Positions 538 through 64,000 of a stretch of DNA of 64,000 nt are shown here, in pieces. This DNA comes from a phage. Below the pieces are notes generated by a model, which was not told the origin of the DNA, did no database searches, and saw only the letters and a list, made by a program, of their open reading frames with translations. The DNA lies in sequence record PQ327946.1. One strand, given 5' to 3'. A program made the translations under genes and the position numbers. Each line of letters opens with the position of its first letter. The stretch's first letter is position 1.

Positions 538-2863
<2,326 letters not shown>

Positions 2864-4986: not shown

Positions 4987-5478
4987 ATGTTTGTAGATGA
5001 CGTAACTCGTGCCTTCGAATCAGGTGATTTCGCTCGCCCTAACCTGTTTGAAGTAGAAATCTCTTATCTTGGGCAAAACTTTAGCTTCCAGTGTCGTGCT
5101 ACGGCTCTTCCTGCTGCGATCGTTGAAAAGGTTCCTGTTTCTTATATGAACCGTAAAATTAACGTGGCCGGTGATCGTACATTCGATGATTGGACTATTA
5201 CAGTAATGAACGATGATGCTCATAGCATTCGTCAGAAATTTGTTGATTGGCAAGGTATTGCAGCAGGACAAGGTAATGAAATTACCGGTGGTAAACCTGC
5301 TGAATATAAAAAGACTGCTATCGTTCGTCAATTTGCTCGTGATGCTAAAACCGTCACTAAAGAAGTTGAAATTGTCGGCTTGTGGCCTACTAACGTTGGT
5401 GAAGTATCTCTTGACTGGGACAGCAATAACGAGATTGAAACGTTCGAAGTAACTCTTGCTCTTGATTGGTGGGAATAA
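4987..5478 (+). CDS. 19: tail tube protein gp19
   Basis: 163 aa; follows sheath gene; late promoter upstream. Confidence 0.9.
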   Translation: MFVDDVTRAFESGDFARPNLFEVEISYLGQNFSFQCRATALPAAIVEKVPVSYMNRKINVAGDRTFDDWTITVMNDDAHSIRQKFVDWQGIAAGQGNEITGGKPAEYKKTAIVRQFARDAKTVTKEVEIVGLWPTNVGEVSLDWDSNNEIETFEVTLALDWWE

Positions 5479-11588: not shown

Positions 11589-11870
11589 TTACGCTGCTTT
11601 GACACGACGGTTGATGATATCACGGAAGTCAATACGATTTTCTTGGATTTTCAGCCAGTTACCAGATTTGTCTTTGGTATGGGTAGAATATTCACCGTTC
11701 CACCAGAAGTCGGTTTCATAAGCCAAGGCTTCGTATTTCTTAACCAATGCATTAACTGCATTACCGTTAGGATTGGTACCAAATTTTTCTACCAGAGCTT
11801 TGATGTCTTTGTCAAGGTTAGAAAGTGTGGTACGGATAAAGTTTAATTTGTTCATTTTTAATCTCCTCAT
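11589..11870 (-). CDS. hypothetical protein (93 aa; start possibly at internal Met)
   Basis: ORF downstream of an early-promoter-like motif; no recognisable domain. Confidence 0.4.
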   Translation of the reverse strand: MRRLKMNKLNFIRTTLSNLDKDIKALVEKFGTNPNGNAVNALVKKYEALAYETDFWWNGEYSTHTKDKSGNWLKIQENRIDFRDIINRRVKAA

Positions 11871-11884
11871 GTTTTGATAGGTCT

Positions 11885-11914
11885 ATAGTAACACAACGCT
11901 TTTTGTGTGTAAAC
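11885..11914 (-). promoter_or_regulatory. early (sigma70-type) promoter
   Basis: Minus strand GTTTAC-N18-TACTAT upstream of ORF 11589..11870. Confidence 0.5.
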
Positions 11915-11920
11915 CACTTT

Positions 11921-22543: not shown

Positions 22544-23024
22544 TAAAAAGGTAATGATTCCCAAATTAGGGCTCAAACATTATAATCTTTTAAAGGACGT
22601 TAAAGGTCCTGACGAAAACATGAAAATCTTAGCTGATTCTATTTGTAAAAATATGAGTCCCGCAGATTTTGATTTTGCATGTCTACACATATTGGAATTT
22701 AATAACAAACTTAAGTCTGAAGTTGAAAAAGATGGATTCACTTATAAACTAGATGACGTCTATGTATGCCAACGAACAGAATTCCAATTTCAAGGTAATA
22801 CTTTTTATTTTAGGCCCCCAGGCAAATTTGAACAATTCGCTACAATCAGTGAAATGCTATCAAATTGCTTAATAAAAGTTAATGACGAAGAGAAAGAAAT
22901 TTCTTTCCTTGAGATGCCTGCTTTTGTAATCAAATGGGCAGAAGACCTTTCGACAACTATTGCTATTCCAGGCCCTAATGGCCCTATTAAGGGTATAGCA
23001 GAAATTATTGGATTGCTTGAATGA
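22491..23024 (+). CDS. 28: baseplate hub distal protein gp28
   Basis: 177 aa; overlaps gene 27 end; T4 position. Confidence 0.75.
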
Positions 23025-34170: not shown

Positions 34171-34539
34171 TTATGCAACTTTAATCCAATTGTCTAAATT
34201 TAAAACACCTTTGGCTTTCATTTTTTCGATCAGGTTATCTGCTGTAATGCGTCCATTTTGATACCATGTAACATCTTCAGAGTAACCAGTTTCTTCGTCA
34301 ACATATGTTTCTGAACGAATTTTACCGGTAATAATAGTTTTTAATTCGTATGTGTCACCTGTGAAAAAGTTTGCTAACACAATTTTCCAAGAGAAATCAT
34401 CTGAAGGACCTTCAGGGGTCATACAACCTACGAACTCAAATTGCTCTTTGTATAACATCCACTGGAATTCTTTAATTTCGATAGCTTTATAACCGTCTTG
34501 GTCTTTACATTTGATGTATGAGTTCAGATTGATTTTCAT
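34171..34539 (-). CDS. hypothetical protein (122 aa)
   Basis: ORF preceded by early-promoter-like motif. Confidence 0.4.
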   Translation of the reverse strand: MKINLNSYIKCKDQDGYKAIEIKEFQWMLYKEQFEFVGCMTPEGPSDDFSWKIVLANFFTGDTYELKTIITGKIRSETYVDEETGYSEDVTWYQNGRITADNLIEKMKAKGVLNLDNWIKVA

Positions 34540-34609: not shown

Positions 34610-34639
34610 ATCTTTTTTAAACTTTTTCTGCCCTAAACG

Positions 34640-34664
34640 CACAAAAGGGAGACCGAAGTCTCCC
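34640..34664 (-). terminator. terminator after the 59-aa basic ORF
   Basis: GGGAGAC-UUCG-GUCUCCC followed by UUUUG on the minus strand. Confidence 0.65.
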
Positions 34665-34669
34665 TAAAA

Positions 34670-34849
34670 TTATGCAACAACCTTTCCAAAACGAGAAGCA
34701 TCATCTCGAAGAACTGCACGTGCTCTGCGCATGATCTTCTCAACTGTTTGATTAATACGAGAGTTCGACCCACGCTTGTATCCAGCGCGTTTAGAGGTAC
34801 CATCAACTTTCTTTTCAACTGCTTTCTTTGCTTTAGCTTGTTTTGCCAT
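34670..34849 (-). CDS. small lysine-rich basic protein (59 aa), not in ORF track
   Basis: Translation MAKQAKAKKAVEKKVDGTSKRAGYKRGSNSRINQTVEKIMRRARAVLRDDASRFGKVVA; AAAGAG upstream of ATG; stop followed at once by a GGGAGAC-UUCG-GUCUCCC terminator. Confidence 0.45.
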   Translation of the reverse strand: MAKQAKAKKAVEKKVDGTSKRAGYKRGSNSRINQTVEKIMRRARAVLRDDASRFGKVVA

Positions 34850-35111
34850 TATAAATTCTCTTTAAATGAAAATGCAGGACTTATTGACATTGCCTGCTCA
34901 AGCCCTCAAGGGGAACATAGGTTTTGGATATTTAACGACAGGATAACCATAAACCCGTCATCATACCTACCACGACTTACACAGATAACACTTTTCTGAC
35001 GCATGATAGTAACATTCAAGAGGTACACCGTAAAATTGTCGGGGCGGTACTTCTAAAACATACCGATTCGCAAATCGATAATCAGACAATTCGACGGCTC
35101 CTCGATTTAAC

Positions 35112-35360
35112 TTACTTCAGGGTAATAACAAAATGACGAACTGCTTTGCGTGCTGCAGAAGCCAGAGGCTTAGCATATTTCAATTCATCTTTAGCTTCCA
35201 GTTCAGAAGCCAGAGTAGCCTGAGCAGGATTCAGATGTTTGAAATATCGCAGGATTTCCAGTGCTTCGGCTTCAACATCAATTGACGCACCGTAGTTTTC
35301 GTGACCGTTATTCCATGCGTTTCGTTGCAGTTCAAGAGCGTGTTGTAATTGTTTAATCAT
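35112..35360 (-). CDS. rIII: rIII lysis inhibition accessory protein
   Basis: 82 aa; T4 rIII-like; late promoter upstream. Confidence 0.8.
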   Translation of the reverse strand: MIKQLQHALELQRNAWNNGHENYGASIDVEAEALEILRYFKHLNPAQATLASELEAKDELKYAKPLASAARKAVRHFVITLK

Positions 35361-35484: not shown

Positions 35485-35817
35485 TCACTTATAAAGACAC
35501 GGAATAGCTTTATAGTGGCATGTTACGAATTTCTGTTTAATTTCTTTAGGTTGTTTAAGTCCCAAAGCCACAAATGGATGTGGAACATTTCGAATTTGTC
35601 CAACTGGTAGTGGAGTCAAATCACCGACTTCAACAAAACCTTCAGGAACATCAGGACCTACAGAATGAACTACACATAGTTCAGGAACTTCACCTTGAAC
35701 ACGTTTACCAATCACAAGTCCTGATTCTGTAACTTCTTCATCACCTGCTTGAGCGGGTTCAGAAACCAGAATGACATATTCACCAACAGCACGAATTGGG
35801 AGTTGTACTTCAGACAT
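35485..35817 (-). CDS. 31: gp31 co-chaperonin (GroES-like)
   Basis: 110 aa; T4 gp31-like; MotA-box middle promoter upstream. Confidence 0.85.
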
Positions 35818-35874: not shown

Positions 35875-36183
35875 TTACATAAGAAGCAAACGCTCCGCCG
35901 GAGTACCATCAACCGAAATTACTTTATCAAGGCGGAAAGAACGCCACTGGCCTAACTTGGTATCGAATGCTCGAACTGATTCACGAGGTTCATAACGAAC
36001 TTCTGTTGCTGGATTGTTATTTTCATATTTGACTTCAAGTTCATCGCGCGAAGCAAACATAGTGCGTACCTCGCCGTTAGCCTTTTCAAATACAACACAA
36101 TGAACGCCTACAGACAGAATAGTTTTAATACGTTCACGAAGAACCATAGTTTCTTGTTCAGTTAAAATCATATTATTCACCAC
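35875..36183 (-). CDS. hypothetical protein (31.1-like, 102 aa)
   Basis: ORF between cd and 31. Confidence 0.4.
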   Translation of the reverse strand: MVNNMILTEQETMVLRERIKTILSVGVHCVVFEKANGEVRTMFASRDELEVKYENNNPATEVRYEPRESVRAFDTKLGQWRSFRLDKVISVDGTPAERLLLM

Positions 36184-36754
36184 AAAAGTTTCGGATTTGT
36201 TCCCAATTCAGAGAACGAAGATTATTACGAGAGTACTGAATTACTTCAATACCAGCTTGTTTAAGAATGTCTGCCCAATTTTCAGGAGATCGGTCATATA
36301 ATTCTGCATATACAACCTTTTTAATACCTGACTGTGTAATAGCTTTAGTGCAATCAGGACATGGAGAAAGTGTCGTATACAACGTAGCACCTTCAATAGA
36401 ATTACCTTTGCGAGCAGCAAACAAAATGGCATTCAATTCTGCATGGATTTCATTATTAGCAGACCATGCACTATGAGCGGCCCGATGTTCTTTAGCCAAA
36501 ACAAAATTATCTGCCCGTCCAAATGATGTAGTGCCTTCTTTATGCCCAGCAACGATGACCGGGCTTGGTTTATTCTTCAACCAACCGTTTTCGGATGCAT
36601 GTTCACAACAGTTAACACCACCTGCAGGTGAACCATTATATCCGGTAGAAATAATGCGTCCATCTTTTTCAATGACGGCACCAACTTTCCATGAACAACA
36701 TTTTGATTCTTGAGAAATCAGATATGCAATCTGAAGGTATGTGCTAGCTTTCAT
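36173..36754 (-). CDS. cd: dCMP deaminase
   Basis: 193 aa; zinc-binding deaminase motifs HAELNAI and SPCPDC. Confidence 0.9.
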   Translation of the reverse strand: MKASTYLQIAYLISQESKCCSWKVGAVIEKDGRIISTGYNGSPAGGVNCCEHASENGWLKNKPSPVIVAGHKEGTTSFGRADNFVLAKEHRAAHSAWSANNEIHAELNAILFAARKGNSIEGATLYTTLSPCPDCTKAITQSGIKKVVYAELYDRSPENWADILKQAGIEVIQYSRNNLRSLNWEQIRNFCGE

Positions 36755-53155: not shown

Positions 53156-53809
53156 TTAATACTTACATGATTTGATTGTTTCTATGAACAATTTCTTAGC
53201 AGCATTTCCATCGATTTGAAGTATTTTTCGATATGCCTTTAATTTGGTAGAATAATTTTGCCAGACTAAGTTATCGGTGAGTTCGTCGTGCTTATCTATA
53301 ATATTCAAAAATGAGTCCAACAATAAGAAAGTCTCAAATGAAATTATATTGCTTTGTAGCAATTTGAATATGTAGCTCGACTGAACGTTGTTATTATAAT
53401 CAAATATCTCTTGAAGCGCACTAACTTCAACTTTCTTACTGAAATAGTAGATGTTACGTACATCTTCAGCAAACGTCTCCTTGGCTTGTTTGAGACGTCC
53501 AATATATTCCCTATAGAAAACTAATGCATCAGCGTCTGATATCTCACCAATCCATGCGTCTTGGTTAGCAACTAAGTTGCTTATGAATATCAAGGTGAGT
53601 TCCTTCAATTTATATTTCTCTGATAGTTTTTCAAAGAAATATTTATCTCGGCGTTTTTGATACGCATTATCAGAAACACGCATGCACCAGTTATATTTGA
53701 TTACGTCATACCGACCACCAAAATGGTTTTTGCACATCAAGTATAGTTTATATACCGATTTTCCATTAATATAACGTTCTCCATCAGGAGGCATGCGTAT
53801 TTTAATCAT
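53156..53809 (-). CDS. 59: helicase loader gp59
   Basis: 217 aa; T4 order 32-59-33. Confidence 0.85.
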   Translation of the reverse strand: MIKIRMPPDGERYINGKSVYKLYLMCKNHFGGRYDVIKYNWCMRVSDNAYQKRRDKYFFEKLSEKYKLKELTLIFISNLVANQDAWIGEISDADALVFYREYIGRLKQAKETFAEDVRNIYYFSKKVEVSALQEIFDYNNNVQSSYIFKLLQSNIISFETFLLLDSFLNIIDKHDELTDNLVWQNYSTKLKAYRKILQIDGNAAKKLFIETIKSCKY

Positions 53810-54144
53810 AATAAGAAATCTAACGTATTAGTTTTTTCGCCACGAGCAACTGATGGGCGAAGCATGTTTTCGTCAATTGCTTCGCTTGTAATTTTTTCAA
53901 CAATTCCTGTAGGAATAAATTTAGCAAATTGTGTTTCTGGAATAGAATTTTCTTCCAAGAAAGCAGTTGTTGCTTCTAAATAAGACATACCAAATTGTTC
54001 AACCATGGATTCGATAATGAATCCGTTTTCTTGTCGGTCAAGCAATTTAGCGATATCATCTTTATCGTGTTTTACTGCTAATTCTTGTTCAGATAAACCG
54101 GCCTCATCAACCGGTTTAATATCACTTAGTGAAAACTGTGTCAT
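53806..54144 (-). CDS. 33: late transcription co-activator gp33
   Basis: 112 aa; T4 position. Confidence 0.8.
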   Translation of the reverse strand: MTQFSLSDIKPVDEAGLSEQELAVKHDKDDIAKLLDRQENGFIIESMVEQFGMSYLEATTAFLEENSIPETQFAKFIPTGIVEKITSEAIDENMLRPSVARGEKTNTLDFLL

Positions 54145-54409
54145 AAAGCTCGACTACCTCTTCGTTTTCAGCTTCAAATTGGTCACGTGCGTCTTTATGA
54201 TAAAGAGCTAACAAACGATTAAACATTTTTCCATCGACGCCAAGCTCTTCTTTAGCACGAGTACGAATGTCTTTAATCAGTTCATTATAACCAGAAATTT
54301 TAAGTTTGTTATCGGAAGCTTCCTTGACTAGTTTAGCCAGTTCTTCACCATGCACATCTTGATTAAATTCAACTGCTTCTTTCTTAGCCATGTTTACCTC
54401 AGAATTCAT
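54122..54409 (-). CDS. dsbA: dsDNA-binding protein DsbA (start probably at internal Met MAKKEAVEF)
   Basis: Small ORF between rnh and 33 as in T4. Confidence 0.65.
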   Translation of the reverse strand: MNSEVNMAKKEAVEFNQDVHGEELAKLVKEASDNKLKISGYNELIKDIRTRAKEELGVDGKMFNRLLALYHKDARDQFEAENEEVVELYDTVFTK

Positions 54410-61159: not shown

Positions 61160-61167
61160 GAGGACTT

Positions 61168-64000
61168 ATGGCTACATTAAAACAGATACAATTTAAAAGA
61201 AGCAAAGTAGCAGGAGTTAATCCTACTGCAGCACAATTAGCCGAAGGCGAATTAGCGATAAACTTAAAAGATCGAACTCTTTTTACTAAAGATGACCTCG
61301 GTAATATTATTAGCCTAGGCTTTGCTAAGGGTGGGGATATTAACGGTAATGTAACTCAAACTGGCGATTATTTACAAAACGGCACGTATAATCTCAATGG
61401 AAATCAGTTTGTTTATGCAGGAAAATACATTGAATTTTTACCTAAAACCACTGGAAATGGCGCTTGGGCTAACCAACATTCGAATAAAGCCCCTATCTTT
61501 ACAGATTTAAGTTCAACTACTTCTGTTTCAGAATACCATCCACTGATTAAACAACGCTATAAAGATGGAACTTTTTCTGCTGGTACATTAGTAAACGAAG
61601 GTAGTTTTAAATTCCATTATATTGATGAAACCGGGACTTCAAAATACTGGACTTTTAATCGAAACGGTAATTTTCAAGTTGATTCCGGAAGTTTATTAGT
61701 ATCTAATGGATATTTAGTTACTCAAAGTAATATTGAAACTAAAGCTGGTTCTTTAATTGGTCCTAAAGTTATTACCAAAAATATCAATGTGAGCACTAAA
61801 TCTTGGGACACTAATATTGATACTGCATATGATTTAGTTTCATTACCGACTTGGCAGTATACTCCAACCGAAACGGATTTAGATACTAATGGTATAAACT
61901 ACCTTCGTAAATTCCGCGGACATGTTTCTTCTGCTATTTTCCATGAAGTTGCTGATGCTCGTTCAGGTAAACCACAGAATATTTCGTATTGGACGGGACG
62001 TAATGCTGAAGTTTATCAATGGTCTTATACCACAGATGGGCGTATGTCTGTTGCTAATTCGATAGGTATAGGTCTTGCTGATGTTGGTGACCAAGGACGT
62101 TATCCATTGGTTTCGTTTGGTAAAGGTATTGCAATTGGTGACAATGATACTGGTATTAAATGGGTTCGTGACGGGGTTATCGATTTAGTTGCGAATGGTA
62201 TTTCTGCCGGCACTATTCTTAATAACGGTATTAACAGTACTAAAAAATTGATGGTTGGTTATAGTCGAGATTCTGGTTCTACTTGGGATTACCCAAATAA
62301 CAACCAAGCAATGTTTACTGCGCGTACCGATGTTGATGGTAATAATAACGGTGACGGTCAGACTCATATCGGTTATAGCAGCAATTCTAAAATGTATCAC
62401 TATTTCCGTGGTACAGGTCGTATGTCCGTTAATATGGTCGGTGGGCTTATTGTTGAGCCGGGTATTTTAGATATTAAAACAGGTTCAAATACATTAAGTT
62501 TGCGTGCTGATGGTACCGTCGCTTCTGTTCAAACATTAAAGCTTAATAATGGATTATATTTTAATAGTGATGGAACTAACGCTTCTCTAATTTTTAAAGC
62601 AGCTTCAGGTATTGATGGTACTAAGCAAATTTTGTGGGAAGGCGGTACCCGAGCGGGCCAGAATAAGAGTTATGTAACTGTTAAAGCATGGGGTAATTCA
62701 TTTAACGCCACCGGCGATAAAGCTCGCGAAACGGTTTTTGAAGTAGCTGATGGTCAAGGTTATTATTTTTATTCTCAACGCGTAGCTCCGAGCGGTTCCG
62801 AAACTACTGGTCCTGTTGTAACCCAGTTTGCGGGAGCTGTTAACGCTAGAGGAAGTATTATTACTGACGGAAGTTTTAAAGTTAATGGATTAAGCACTTT
62901 AGTCGGCAATGTTACCATGTCTAATGGTTTGTTTGTCCAAGGTGGTTCTTCTATTACAGGCCAAGTAAAAATTGGTGGAACAGCAGATGCATTGAGAATT
63001 TGGAACGCCGAATATGGCGCTATTTTCCGCCGTTCTGAAGATAAGCTTTATATTATTCCAACCCCGCAGAATGCTGGTGAATCAGGTGGTATTTCTAATT
63101 TACGTCCGTTCTATATTGCATTAAGTAATGGTAAAGTTTCCATGGATCATGATGTAGATATCGGTGGCGGTAGATTTAAAGTAGAAGTGGCTGGAACAAC
63201 ATCAGGGCAACGTATTACAGTTAATATGGCATCAGATGCTATTAGAATAAATGCTCCAACGCAAGAGTCTTCTAACTTCATCCAAGGACGTAAAGCAGAT
63301 GTTCCGAAATGGTATTTAGGTATTGGCGATGGCAGCAACGTCGTTCGTATGCACAGTTACACCTACTCCCACGGTATTGCATTAAACTCTGATACTGTCA
63401 ATATTACTAAACCTCTTAGAATAGGTTCAGCTCAATTAGGTACTGATGGTAATATTACTGGTGGTTCTGGTAATTTTGATAACTTGAATACCACAATAAA
63501 TAACCTTAAGACAGATATTGTCTCAAGTTATCCAATTGGTGCTCCGATTCCTTGGCCTACTGATACACCTCCTGAAGGTTATGCCATAATGGAAGGTCAA
63601 ACATTTGATGCTGACTTGTATCCTAAGTTAGCTGCGGTGTATCCTTCCGGCGCTCTGCCTGATATGCGTGGTCAAACTATCAAGGGTAAACCATCTGGGC
63701 GTGCTGTATTAAGTACAGAAGAAGACGGTGTTAAGTCACATAGCCATAGTGCAAGTGCATCAAGCACGGATTTAGGTACTAAGACCACTTCTAGTTTTGA
63801 TTACGGTAGCAAAACGACTTCAAGCTTTGATTATGGTACTAAGACCAGTAATACCACTGGCAACCATAACCATACAGTGAGTGGTAATACTAGTTCCGCT
63901 GGTGCGCACCAACACGCGCGTTCAGGCCCTCAGATGCAAGGCGGCGTACCCACTAGCATATTCCGTGATGGATACAATAGTGCGGGTCCAAACGGCAACG
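61168..64000 (+). CDS. 37: long tail fibre distal subunit gp37, 3'-truncated at window edge
   Basis: ATG at 61168 ([21 protein letters not shown]..); open to end of window; His-containing tip motifs ([19 protein letters not shown]) near the end. Confidence 0.85.

Follow-up and report, generated by a model that had tools for sequence, protein, structure and literature searches.

The gene 32 leader of phages T2, T4, T6 and RB69 contains an H-type pseudoknot, which lies in untranslated sequence ahead of a small gene of the nucleic-acid-binding type. A 2010 review described it as possibly the only viral pseudoknot that serves translational autoregulation and did not mention rIII or 30.9 (PMC3014915). 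Other structured phage RNAs lie in tRNA arrays: T4 rnaC and rnaD are non-tRNA RNAs encoded on the tRNA strand and presumably matured by tRNA-processing enzymes. GOLLD and ROOL are large ncRNAs found beside phage tRNA genes. The small non-tRNA RNAs of tRNA clusters have been a loose end since rnaC and rnaD. HDV-like theta ribozymes are pseudoknotted RNAs of ~50-60 nt, found in sense orientation by phage tRNA genes or at isolated noncoding sites (PMC10879173). In pistol ribozymes (RF02679) and preQ1-I riboswitches (RF00522), both compact, a hairpin loop pairs downstream across an A-rich linker. PeSLs are dispersed, multi-copy promoter/terminator units. In T4-type phages these cassettes are short stem-loop noncoding modules shuffled between related genomes with sharp boundaries (PMC2839356, PMC4122927).

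The spacer between rIII, a phage lysis-timing gene, and 30.9 resembles each of these systems in part. The gene 32 leader pseudoknot is its nearest functional analogue in T4. Both are H-type pseudoknots in the 5' leader of a small gene in the same phage family, with an A/U-rich tract (UUAAA) after the first stem. However, the two share no sequence similarity, and the rIII/30.9 element lies at no fixed distance from the ribosome-binding site, is followed by stable hairpins instead of an unstructured AU-rich tract, and also occurs outside mRNA leaders, in tRNA arrays; a protein partner is known for gene 32 only. Compared with rnaC/rnaD, GOLLD and ROOL, the pseudoknot is far smaller (~50 nt), has another fold and is missing from the T4 tRNA region. 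The spacer is not described in any paper that we found on rIII, on 30.9, on small RNAs of T4 or on its transcription start sites; rIII/30.9 expression was treated by Driukas and Nivinskas 2003 (Biologija), as far as the citation in PMC9409239 indicates.

A conserved noncoding spacer between rIII and 30.9

The window, the whole 64,000-nt stretch of phage DNA that was analysed (PQ327946.1), belongs to a T4-type phage of the genus Mosigvirus, and its spacer was 98.9% identical to that of Mosigvirus HX01 by BLAST. Every gene around the spacer is encoded on the minus strand, and the spacer extends exactly from the rIII stop to the 30.9 start (Table 1). The homologous interval of T4 is 244 nt long (130541-130784). 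T4 is among the best-annotated genomes, yet its reference record holds nothing between rIII and 30.9.

Table 1. Features of the rIII/30.9 locus in the window and of related elements in other genomes.
Feature	Location	Strand	Description
cd	36173-36754	minus	
31.1	35875-36183	minus	
31	35485-35817	minus	
rIII	35112-35360	minus	
rIII/30.9 spacer	34850-35111		262 nt
Module D	35020-35103	minus	long irregular stem, GAGG/CCUC, GCCGU/ACGGU, GAAUUGUC/GACAAUUU
Module D inner hairpin	35061-35081	minus	7-8 bp, UGCG loop
Module M hairpin	34964-35011	minus	CUAUCAUG...CGUGGUAG with inner CAGA/UCUG stem
Core H-type pseudoknot	34916-34961	minus	~48 nt; covariance model and covariation
S1 5' strand	34954-34961	minus	AUGACGGG
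S2 5' strand	34945-34951	minus	UAUGGUU, in 11-nt loop
S1 3' strand	34935-34942	minus	CCUGUCGU
L3	34924-34934	minus	A-rich, UAAAUAUCCAA
S2 3' strand	34916-34923	minus	AACCUAUG
P2	34903-34913	minus	small GC hairpin CCCCUUGAGGG, then CUUG
P3	34874-34897	minus	hairpin GCAGG/CCUGC, conserved 14-nt loop CAAUGUCAAUAAGU
Possible weak hairpin	34856-34872	minus	UUUUC/GAGAA over Shine-Dalgarno AAGAG; read from sequence
Ribosome-binding region of 30.9	34847-34872	minus	AUG 34847-34849; read from sequence
30.9	34670-34849	minus	59 aa
Intrinsic terminator after 30.9	34636-34669	minus	GGGAGAC-UUCG-GUCUCCC-UUUU; read from sequence
30.8	34171-34539	minus	
Pseudoknot, L092	6792-6852		fills 58-nt tRNA-Asp/tRNA-Pro gap; 60.9 bits
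Pseudoknots, L132 (381-kb contig)	4997-5121		two tandem copies fill tRNA-Ala/tRNA-Pro gap
Pseudoknots, L155, L174 (genome collection), L207, L222 (metagenomic)			tandem copies as in the related L132
Pseudoknot, L134			directly after tRNA-Met
Pseudoknot, L229			directly before tRNA-Met
Pseudoknot, L175			between tRNA-Gly and tRNA-Thr, 230 nt past tRNA-Gly
phi92 insert	L091:1414-1840 = NC_023693.1 ~53397-53823; L086/L087 ~690-1023		
473-aa protein gene, L092	8939-10357	minus	adjoins the tRNA array of the pseudoknot
30.9 fusion, L127	~11700-11915	minus	
Hairpin GGAGAUUCACUGCCUUAGUGUGAGCU, T4	L001:1713-1741		after rIII stop
Hairpin GGAGAUUCACUGCCUUAGUGUGAGCU, further entries	L009 ~957-985; L014		
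~135-nt module	L005:707-871	minus	CGGCAAGUGCAUGC...GCUAACGGUGUGCAACAGAUAAGAG
~135-nt module, further entries	L011, L021-L023, L025, L026, L029, L030, L032-L034, L039, L044, L046, L048, L050-L052		

The first-pass annotation of this DNA had singled out the interval as an unusually long gap holding no ORF of more than about 30 codons. The gap was indeed the fifth-longest in the window, against a median of 56 nt, in a ranking based on a crude gene call (ATG-only, 45-codon). The limit on ORF length did not hold on the mechanical ORF list, where two 40-codon ORFs with GTG/TTG starts lie inside the spacer and a plus-strand 83-codon TTG ORF overlaps it. The mechanical ORFs of the spacer are not conserved: in relatives they are interrupted by indels of one base and by the loss of whole modules. 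The supposed GC enrichment was not seen either, as the spacer (40.1%) falls below rIII (42.6%) and 30.9 (42.8%) and exceeds only the window mean (37.9%). Further long ORF-free gaps in the window, at 61160-61921 (762 nt), 22544-23020 (477 nt), 62368-62774 (407 nt) and 54145-54398 (254 nt), may reflect small genes, non-ATG starts or more noncoding elements.

The spacer sample consisted of 14 sequences (the window and 13 GenBank phages) and 37 IMG/VR loci collected via gp30.9. All 51 of the T-even-type spacers measured were noncoding and 120-416 nt long, with rIII upstream and 30.9 downstream. The spacer is conserved in at least six Tevenvirinae genera, with compensatory changes in its helices. 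BLAST against GenBank phages gave 774 records for the spacer and 784 for the proximal 121 nt alone. The proximal 116 nt were 87-89% identical to those of VR7, SP18 and QL01, whereas 30.9 was 64-70% identical at the nucleotide level. The proximal 116 nt are better conserved than the flanking genes. The pattern indicates purifying selection on noncoding sequence, and the RNA structure held by the interval is under stronger constraint than the neighbouring genes. The suggestion of a degenerate coding remnant fails on the same comparison, since conservation of the noncoding core exceeds that of the flanking genes and both 1-nt indels and pairwise compensatory changes have occurred in it.

Downstream of the spacer, gp30.9 is a strongly basic protein of 53-59 aa, for which searches of Pfam, PDB and PHROG gave no Pfam family, no PDB relative and a PHROG without an assigned function. 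The rIII-spacer-30.9 transcription unit probably ends at the terminator after 30.9. This terminator is of textbook form, with a UUCG tetraloop, and was missed by the pattern scan; Rfam gave weak partial matches to sRNA terminator hairpins, aligned there only.

Known RNA families did not account for the spacer. Rfam 15 (4227 models) gave no match in the spacer, and none over the element in T-even relatives or tRNA-array copies. A 107-nt slice searched against Rfam with E up to 10 gave chance snoRNA and lncRNA matches only, and ARAGORN detected no tRNA or tmRNA in the whole window. The single-sequence folding energy of the spacer was ordinary (z = -1.0 on the sense strand and -0.5 on the antisense strand). 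The evidence for a predicted spacer structure is the comparison with relatives, not thermodynamics.

A covarying pseudoknot at the core of the spacer

The most important feature of the spacer, which was absent from the first-pass annotation, is the core H-type pseudoknot. In the consensus, S1 has a bulged purine among its 8-9 bp, the loops L1 and L2 are UU and AU, L3 is A-rich with 11-13 nt, and S2 comprises 4-9 bp with an invariant GUU/AAC end. The invariant junction nucleotides are G-UU, GUUAUC, CGU-AA and AAAC, and most copies have a conserved C and then AAA ahead of the S2 3' strand. S2 forms 5-9 contiguous pairs in divergent lineages (GAAAGUU/AACUUUC, CAAGGUU/AACCUUG, UUGGUAG/CUACUAA and UUGUGAG/CUCACAA). 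In the window and T4 it is weak, with a 4-bp GGUU/AACC helix of -4.0 kcal/mol and possibly 3 bp more past a bulged U, and the 7-9 bp S2 of other lineages is much stronger.

The covariance model R1 was built on S1 alone, with S2 left out. It matched the window at 70.4 bits (E ~1e-15), the sole match in 64 kb, and gave exactly one match in each of 52 rIII/30.9 spacers, all on the sense strand. In a hand-seeded alignment, 86% of the cells were paired compared with 28-48% with slid partners; its seed was picked by eye, and model-fitted alignments are biased towards the structure of the model. Of the cells in 36 distinct sequences, 84% were paired (29-47% for slid partners), and covariation scored 0.341 compared with at most 0.106; T-even sequences are close kin, so cell counts overstate the number of independent events. 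S2 in those 36 sequences was 80% paired, and in four of its pairs both sides had changed. Distinct sequences from outside the T-even phages, 16 in number, formed an independent set that was 82% paired (37-47% with slid partners), with a covariation score of 0.451 compared with at most 0.179. The S2 pair beside GUU/AAC was found in all four Watson-Crick combinations. Both predicted helices are thus supported by covariation, and we regard the structural claim as strong.

U-G pairs are frequent in the pseudoknot, and U8-G34 occurs in 29 of the 36 sequences. Because of these G-U pairs, the functional strand is the minus (sense) strand. The pseudoknot lies 28-310 nt from the rIII stop and ~60 to ~300 nt from the 30.9 AUG, with other modules, including stable hairpins, between. 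Since these distances vary so widely, it has no fixed register with either gene.

Stem-loop modules around the core and the promoter motif

Shuffled stem-loop modules on the sense strand make up the spacer as a mosaic, for which the best reading is a modular structured RNA, not a protein gene and not a promoter. Module D, which adjoins rIII, and module M each occur in some genomes and are missing from others, with sharp boundaries, and the proximal part is nearly invariant. Module D is optional, being missing from LF82-3, RB33, KMB19 and SEA1. RNAalifold analysis of 14 distinct sequences gave 25 pairs for it, 7 of which changed on both sides, compared with 0-1 such pairs when partners were slid; 99.1% of the cells were paired compared with 25-62%. 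Module M is missing from T4, RB33 and KMB19, and RNAalifold gave 15 pairs with 2 compensatory changes (CAGA/UCUG to CAGC/GCUG) in 7 sequences.

P2 adjoins the pseudoknot, before or after it, in most lineages; its CCC/GGG pairs are invariant, so covariation is uninformative about P2 either way. P3 contains one compensatory pair, A-U to U-A, in three Gelderlandvirus sequences (stem GAACUGG/CCAGUUC) in which the loop sequence is kept, and other lineages have different stable hairpins at its position. Both hairpins named in the first-pass annotation, CGATT/AATCG at 35064-35077 and the GCAGG/CCTGC hairpin P3, are real and are kept in relatives by compensatory changes. Dispersed copies were not found: each module, including P2, occurs once in the 64-kb window.

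The spacer had also been credited with an early promoter, and the minus-strand hexamers are present, TTTTAC at 35030-35035 and TACTAT at 35006-35011, separated by 18 nt and with TG at -15/-14. However, the -35 hexamer sits in the 3' strand of a covarying module D helix, and the -10 hexamer is the 5' strand of hairpin M. A T4 early (sigma-70) promoter with a conserved 16-18 nt spacing was not found at orthologous positions: T4 wholly lacks the -10 TACTAT, a 6-nt insertion breaks the spacing in RB69, VR7 and QL01, and the -35 region is missing from LF82-3 and RB33. A promoter/terminator consensus scan did not call the site and found nothing in the spacer beyond chance. The promoter motif is not the conserved feature, and it may at most have weak activity in this one phage. 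The hairpin modules are shuffled between genomes much like the PeSL cassettes (PMC2839356). Unlike PeSLs, they are single-copy, confined to one intergenic site and have no conserved promoter.

Pseudoknot copies outside T-even spacers

Candidates outside T-even spacers were collected with a degenerate DNA pattern derived from the motif itself and then evaluated with the covariance model, which rejected chance pattern matches in L100, L106-L108, L111, L114 and L117. The accepted copies included several in tRNA arrays, where the pseudoknot fills the gap between two tRNA genes or lies directly beside one (Table 1), and others at further intergenic sites of unrelated contigs. S1 begins 5-11 nt past the tRNA end in L092, L132 and L134, and the next tRNA follows 2-10 nt after S2 in L092 and L132. 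No consistent protein-coding neighbour was seen around the non-T-even copies. When these pseudoknots were compared by BLAST with GenBank phages, they gave no match or matched T-even pseudoknots only. The core pseudoknot of the spacer also occurs in tRNA arrays of unrelated and jumbo phages and matches no Rfam family.

Single or tandem pseudoknots lie immediately upstream of tRNA-Pro(UGG) in L132, L155, L174, L207, L222 and L092, which hints at a specific association with this tRNA. The tRNA array of L092 is adjoined by a gene for a 473-aa protein with DUF2828 and DUF7788, assigned to PHROG 850 ('RNA-binding protein'), which could be relevant to the small-RNA biology of that phage.

Phages of the phi92 type (Stephanstirmvirinae), which belong to another family, have the entire T4 spacer inside their tRNA array and lack 30.9. 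This copy is 97.7-99% identical to T4, and its 30.9 AUG is joined to the final 27 rIII codons, so that it represents a circularly permuted T4 fragment, and the insert is flanked by a 13-nt direct repeat, TTTATTGGAGATT. The gene annotated as 'rIII' in a phi92-type phage, gene_113, is this spacer-rIII fusion.

Every T-even phage found to have 30.9 also had the pseudoknot. The T4-type L127 has no 30.9 core motif within ~900 nt downstream, and its pseudoknot is kept (56.9 bits). In L127 only the first 14 codons of 30.9 can still be recognised, fused to an unrelated ORF of ~200 aa, and the spacer is intact. Four phages that carry rIII and lack 30.9 (L083, L088-L090) have no pseudoknot.

Proposed role and alternative explanations

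We infer a function from the distribution of the element, whose conservation, structure, strand and single-copy status are observed. The pseudoknot would be an autonomous structured RNA domain, probably processed out of its transcript, that acts in trans by binding a protein or a small ligand; this is the reading that we favour, and we hold its chances to be evenly balanced. It is considered autonomous because its fold is kept, it has no fixed register with its neighbours, it persists without 30.9 and it fills inter-tRNA gaps. In T-even phages the spacer would be co-transcribed with rIII and 30.9 from the minus strand, and the domain would be carried on the rIII/30.9 transcript. In tRNA arrays, an RNA of ~55-60 nt would be set free once RNase P has cut the downstream tRNA at its 5' end and the upstream tRNA has been trimmed at its 3' end. 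The domain in T-even phages would work at the RNA level as a decoy or aptamer, its target being a small ligand or a protein of the host or the phage, and modules D, M, P2 and P3 may be swappable stabilising or processing modules.

Several observations weigh against this autonomous domain. S2 in the window and T4 has only 4 bp (plus 3 after the bulge), and the spacer as a whole has no unusual folding energy. tRNA arrays tolerate insertions, so adjacency need not mean co-processing, and the tRNA-array copies were retrieved with a DNA pattern derived from the motif. The co-occurrence of pseudoknot and 30.9 among T-even phages also fits a role in cis for 30.9.

A broader and more tentative proposal is that the element founds an undescribed class of small phage RNAs, freed by tRNA enzymes in arrays and by mRNA processing in T-even phages, and acting in trans as a decoy or aptamer or as a minimal ribozyme. 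The host factor might, for example, be an RNase or a ribosomal protein or, among defence components, a nuclease that targets tRNA or a signalling molecule. If this is true, T4 bears an unrecognised functional RNA at 130,602-130,661. The interval itself offers, in T4 and RB69, a concrete and tractable target for genetics on the role of small non-tRNA RNAs in phage tRNA clusters.

In the main rival reading, gene 30.9 would be controlled in cis by the spacer as its leader or translational operator: gp30.9 or another protein would bind the pseudoknot and control the translation or stability of its own mRNA. We consider this somewhat unlikely. In its favour, the pseudoknot lies upstream of 30.9 in 52 of 52 spacers and is absent from the four phages with rIII and without 30.9; gp30.9 is small and strongly basic, and the terminator after 30.9 would make the spacer its 5' leader. 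The gene 32 leader pseudoknot bound by gp32 provides a precedent (PMC3014915). However, the distance to the AUG ranges from ~60 to ~300 nt with modules between, the pseudoknot is kept in L127 and in phi92-type phages, and the tRNA-array copies have no nearby 30.9 homologue. Shine-Dalgarno pairing is divided between lineages: in those with CUCC...GGAAG it is predicted to exceed that of controls, a modest effect, whereas in the window's clade it is predicted at 0.47 compared with 0.48 with shuffled upstream sequence, which does not support sequestration there. The autonomous domain and the leader are not exclusive, as the copy in T-even phages could have one role in cis and another once processed.

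The first-pass annotation had proposed either a small RNA or a regulated leader for 30.9. The structured RNA common to both stood, with conserved noncoding structure, compensatory changes and a sense strand given by the G-U pairs.

It is improbable that the pseudoknot is a ligand-sensing aptamer of preQ1-I/SAM-II-like architecture that tunes 30.9 or serves as a ligand sponge. A compact, self-contained H-type pseudoknot of riboswitch-aptamer size, whose 3' loop is A-rich and whose junction nucleotides do not vary, would suit such a role. However, no riboswitch model matched, including RF00522, there is no recognisable expression platform and no queuosine-gene context (the neighbours are rIII, 30.9 or tRNA genes), the distance to the ribosome-binding site varies, and an inter-tRNA location is atypical for a cis riboswitch.

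Little more can be said for a small self-cleaving ribozyme, or part of one, of theta- or pistol-like type that processes the transcript, which we judge quite improbable. The motif CGUUAAAUA follows the hairpin here and occurs in the env25 pistol ribozyme, and the conserved C and AAA ahead of the S2 3' strand are found in most copies. The tRNA adjacency is like that of theta ribozymes (PMC10879173), and the hairpin-plus-pseudoknot layout is like that of pistol (PMC4604425). However, no Rfam HDV-like, pistol, hatchet, twister or hammerhead model matched the 107-nt slice with E up to 10, or the tRNA-array copies. An HDV-like nested double pseudoknot was not found: in nearly all sequences the 2 nt AU separate the S2 5' and S1 3' strands, which leaves no room for P3, L3 and P1.1. 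The 5' end of the element is not within 5 nt of a tRNA 3' end as in theta ribozymes, since it lies 5-11 nt past the tRNA in L092, L132 and L134, 230 nt past it in L175 and upstream of the tRNA in L229. The P1-hairpin-loop pseudoknot of pistol is present; P2, P3 and the GU / 2-nt cleavage junction are absent. Copies set between tRNA genes leave no space for P2 and P3, and the window has no L3-complementary segment after its own P2 hairpin.

That the spacer is an early promoter with stem-loops, in the manner of a PeSL-like promoter-terminator cassette, or a decayed coding remnant is very improbable, given the helical position and poor conservation of the hexamers, the single-copy modules and the constraint on the noncoding core.

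Further modules in related spacers

Relatives of the window phage carry two more structured elements in this interval. The hairpin GGAGAUUCACUGCCUUAGUGUGAGCU follows the rIII stop in T4, T6, VR7, SP18 and CF-SP2 and lies downstream of the pseudoknot in KMB19 and SEA1. It is a further shuffled module and shows a compensatory change of CAC/GUG to CGC/GCG. It contains GGAG, which is the cleavage motif of RegB.

A second structured module, of ~135 nt, occurs in the rIII/30.9 spacer of many T-even-type phages and is absent from the window. Rfam gave no match to it. Work on the interval may point to a function for this module and for the orphan gene 30.9. RNAalifold predicted 40 pairs in the ~135-nt module, 11 of them with compensatory changes.
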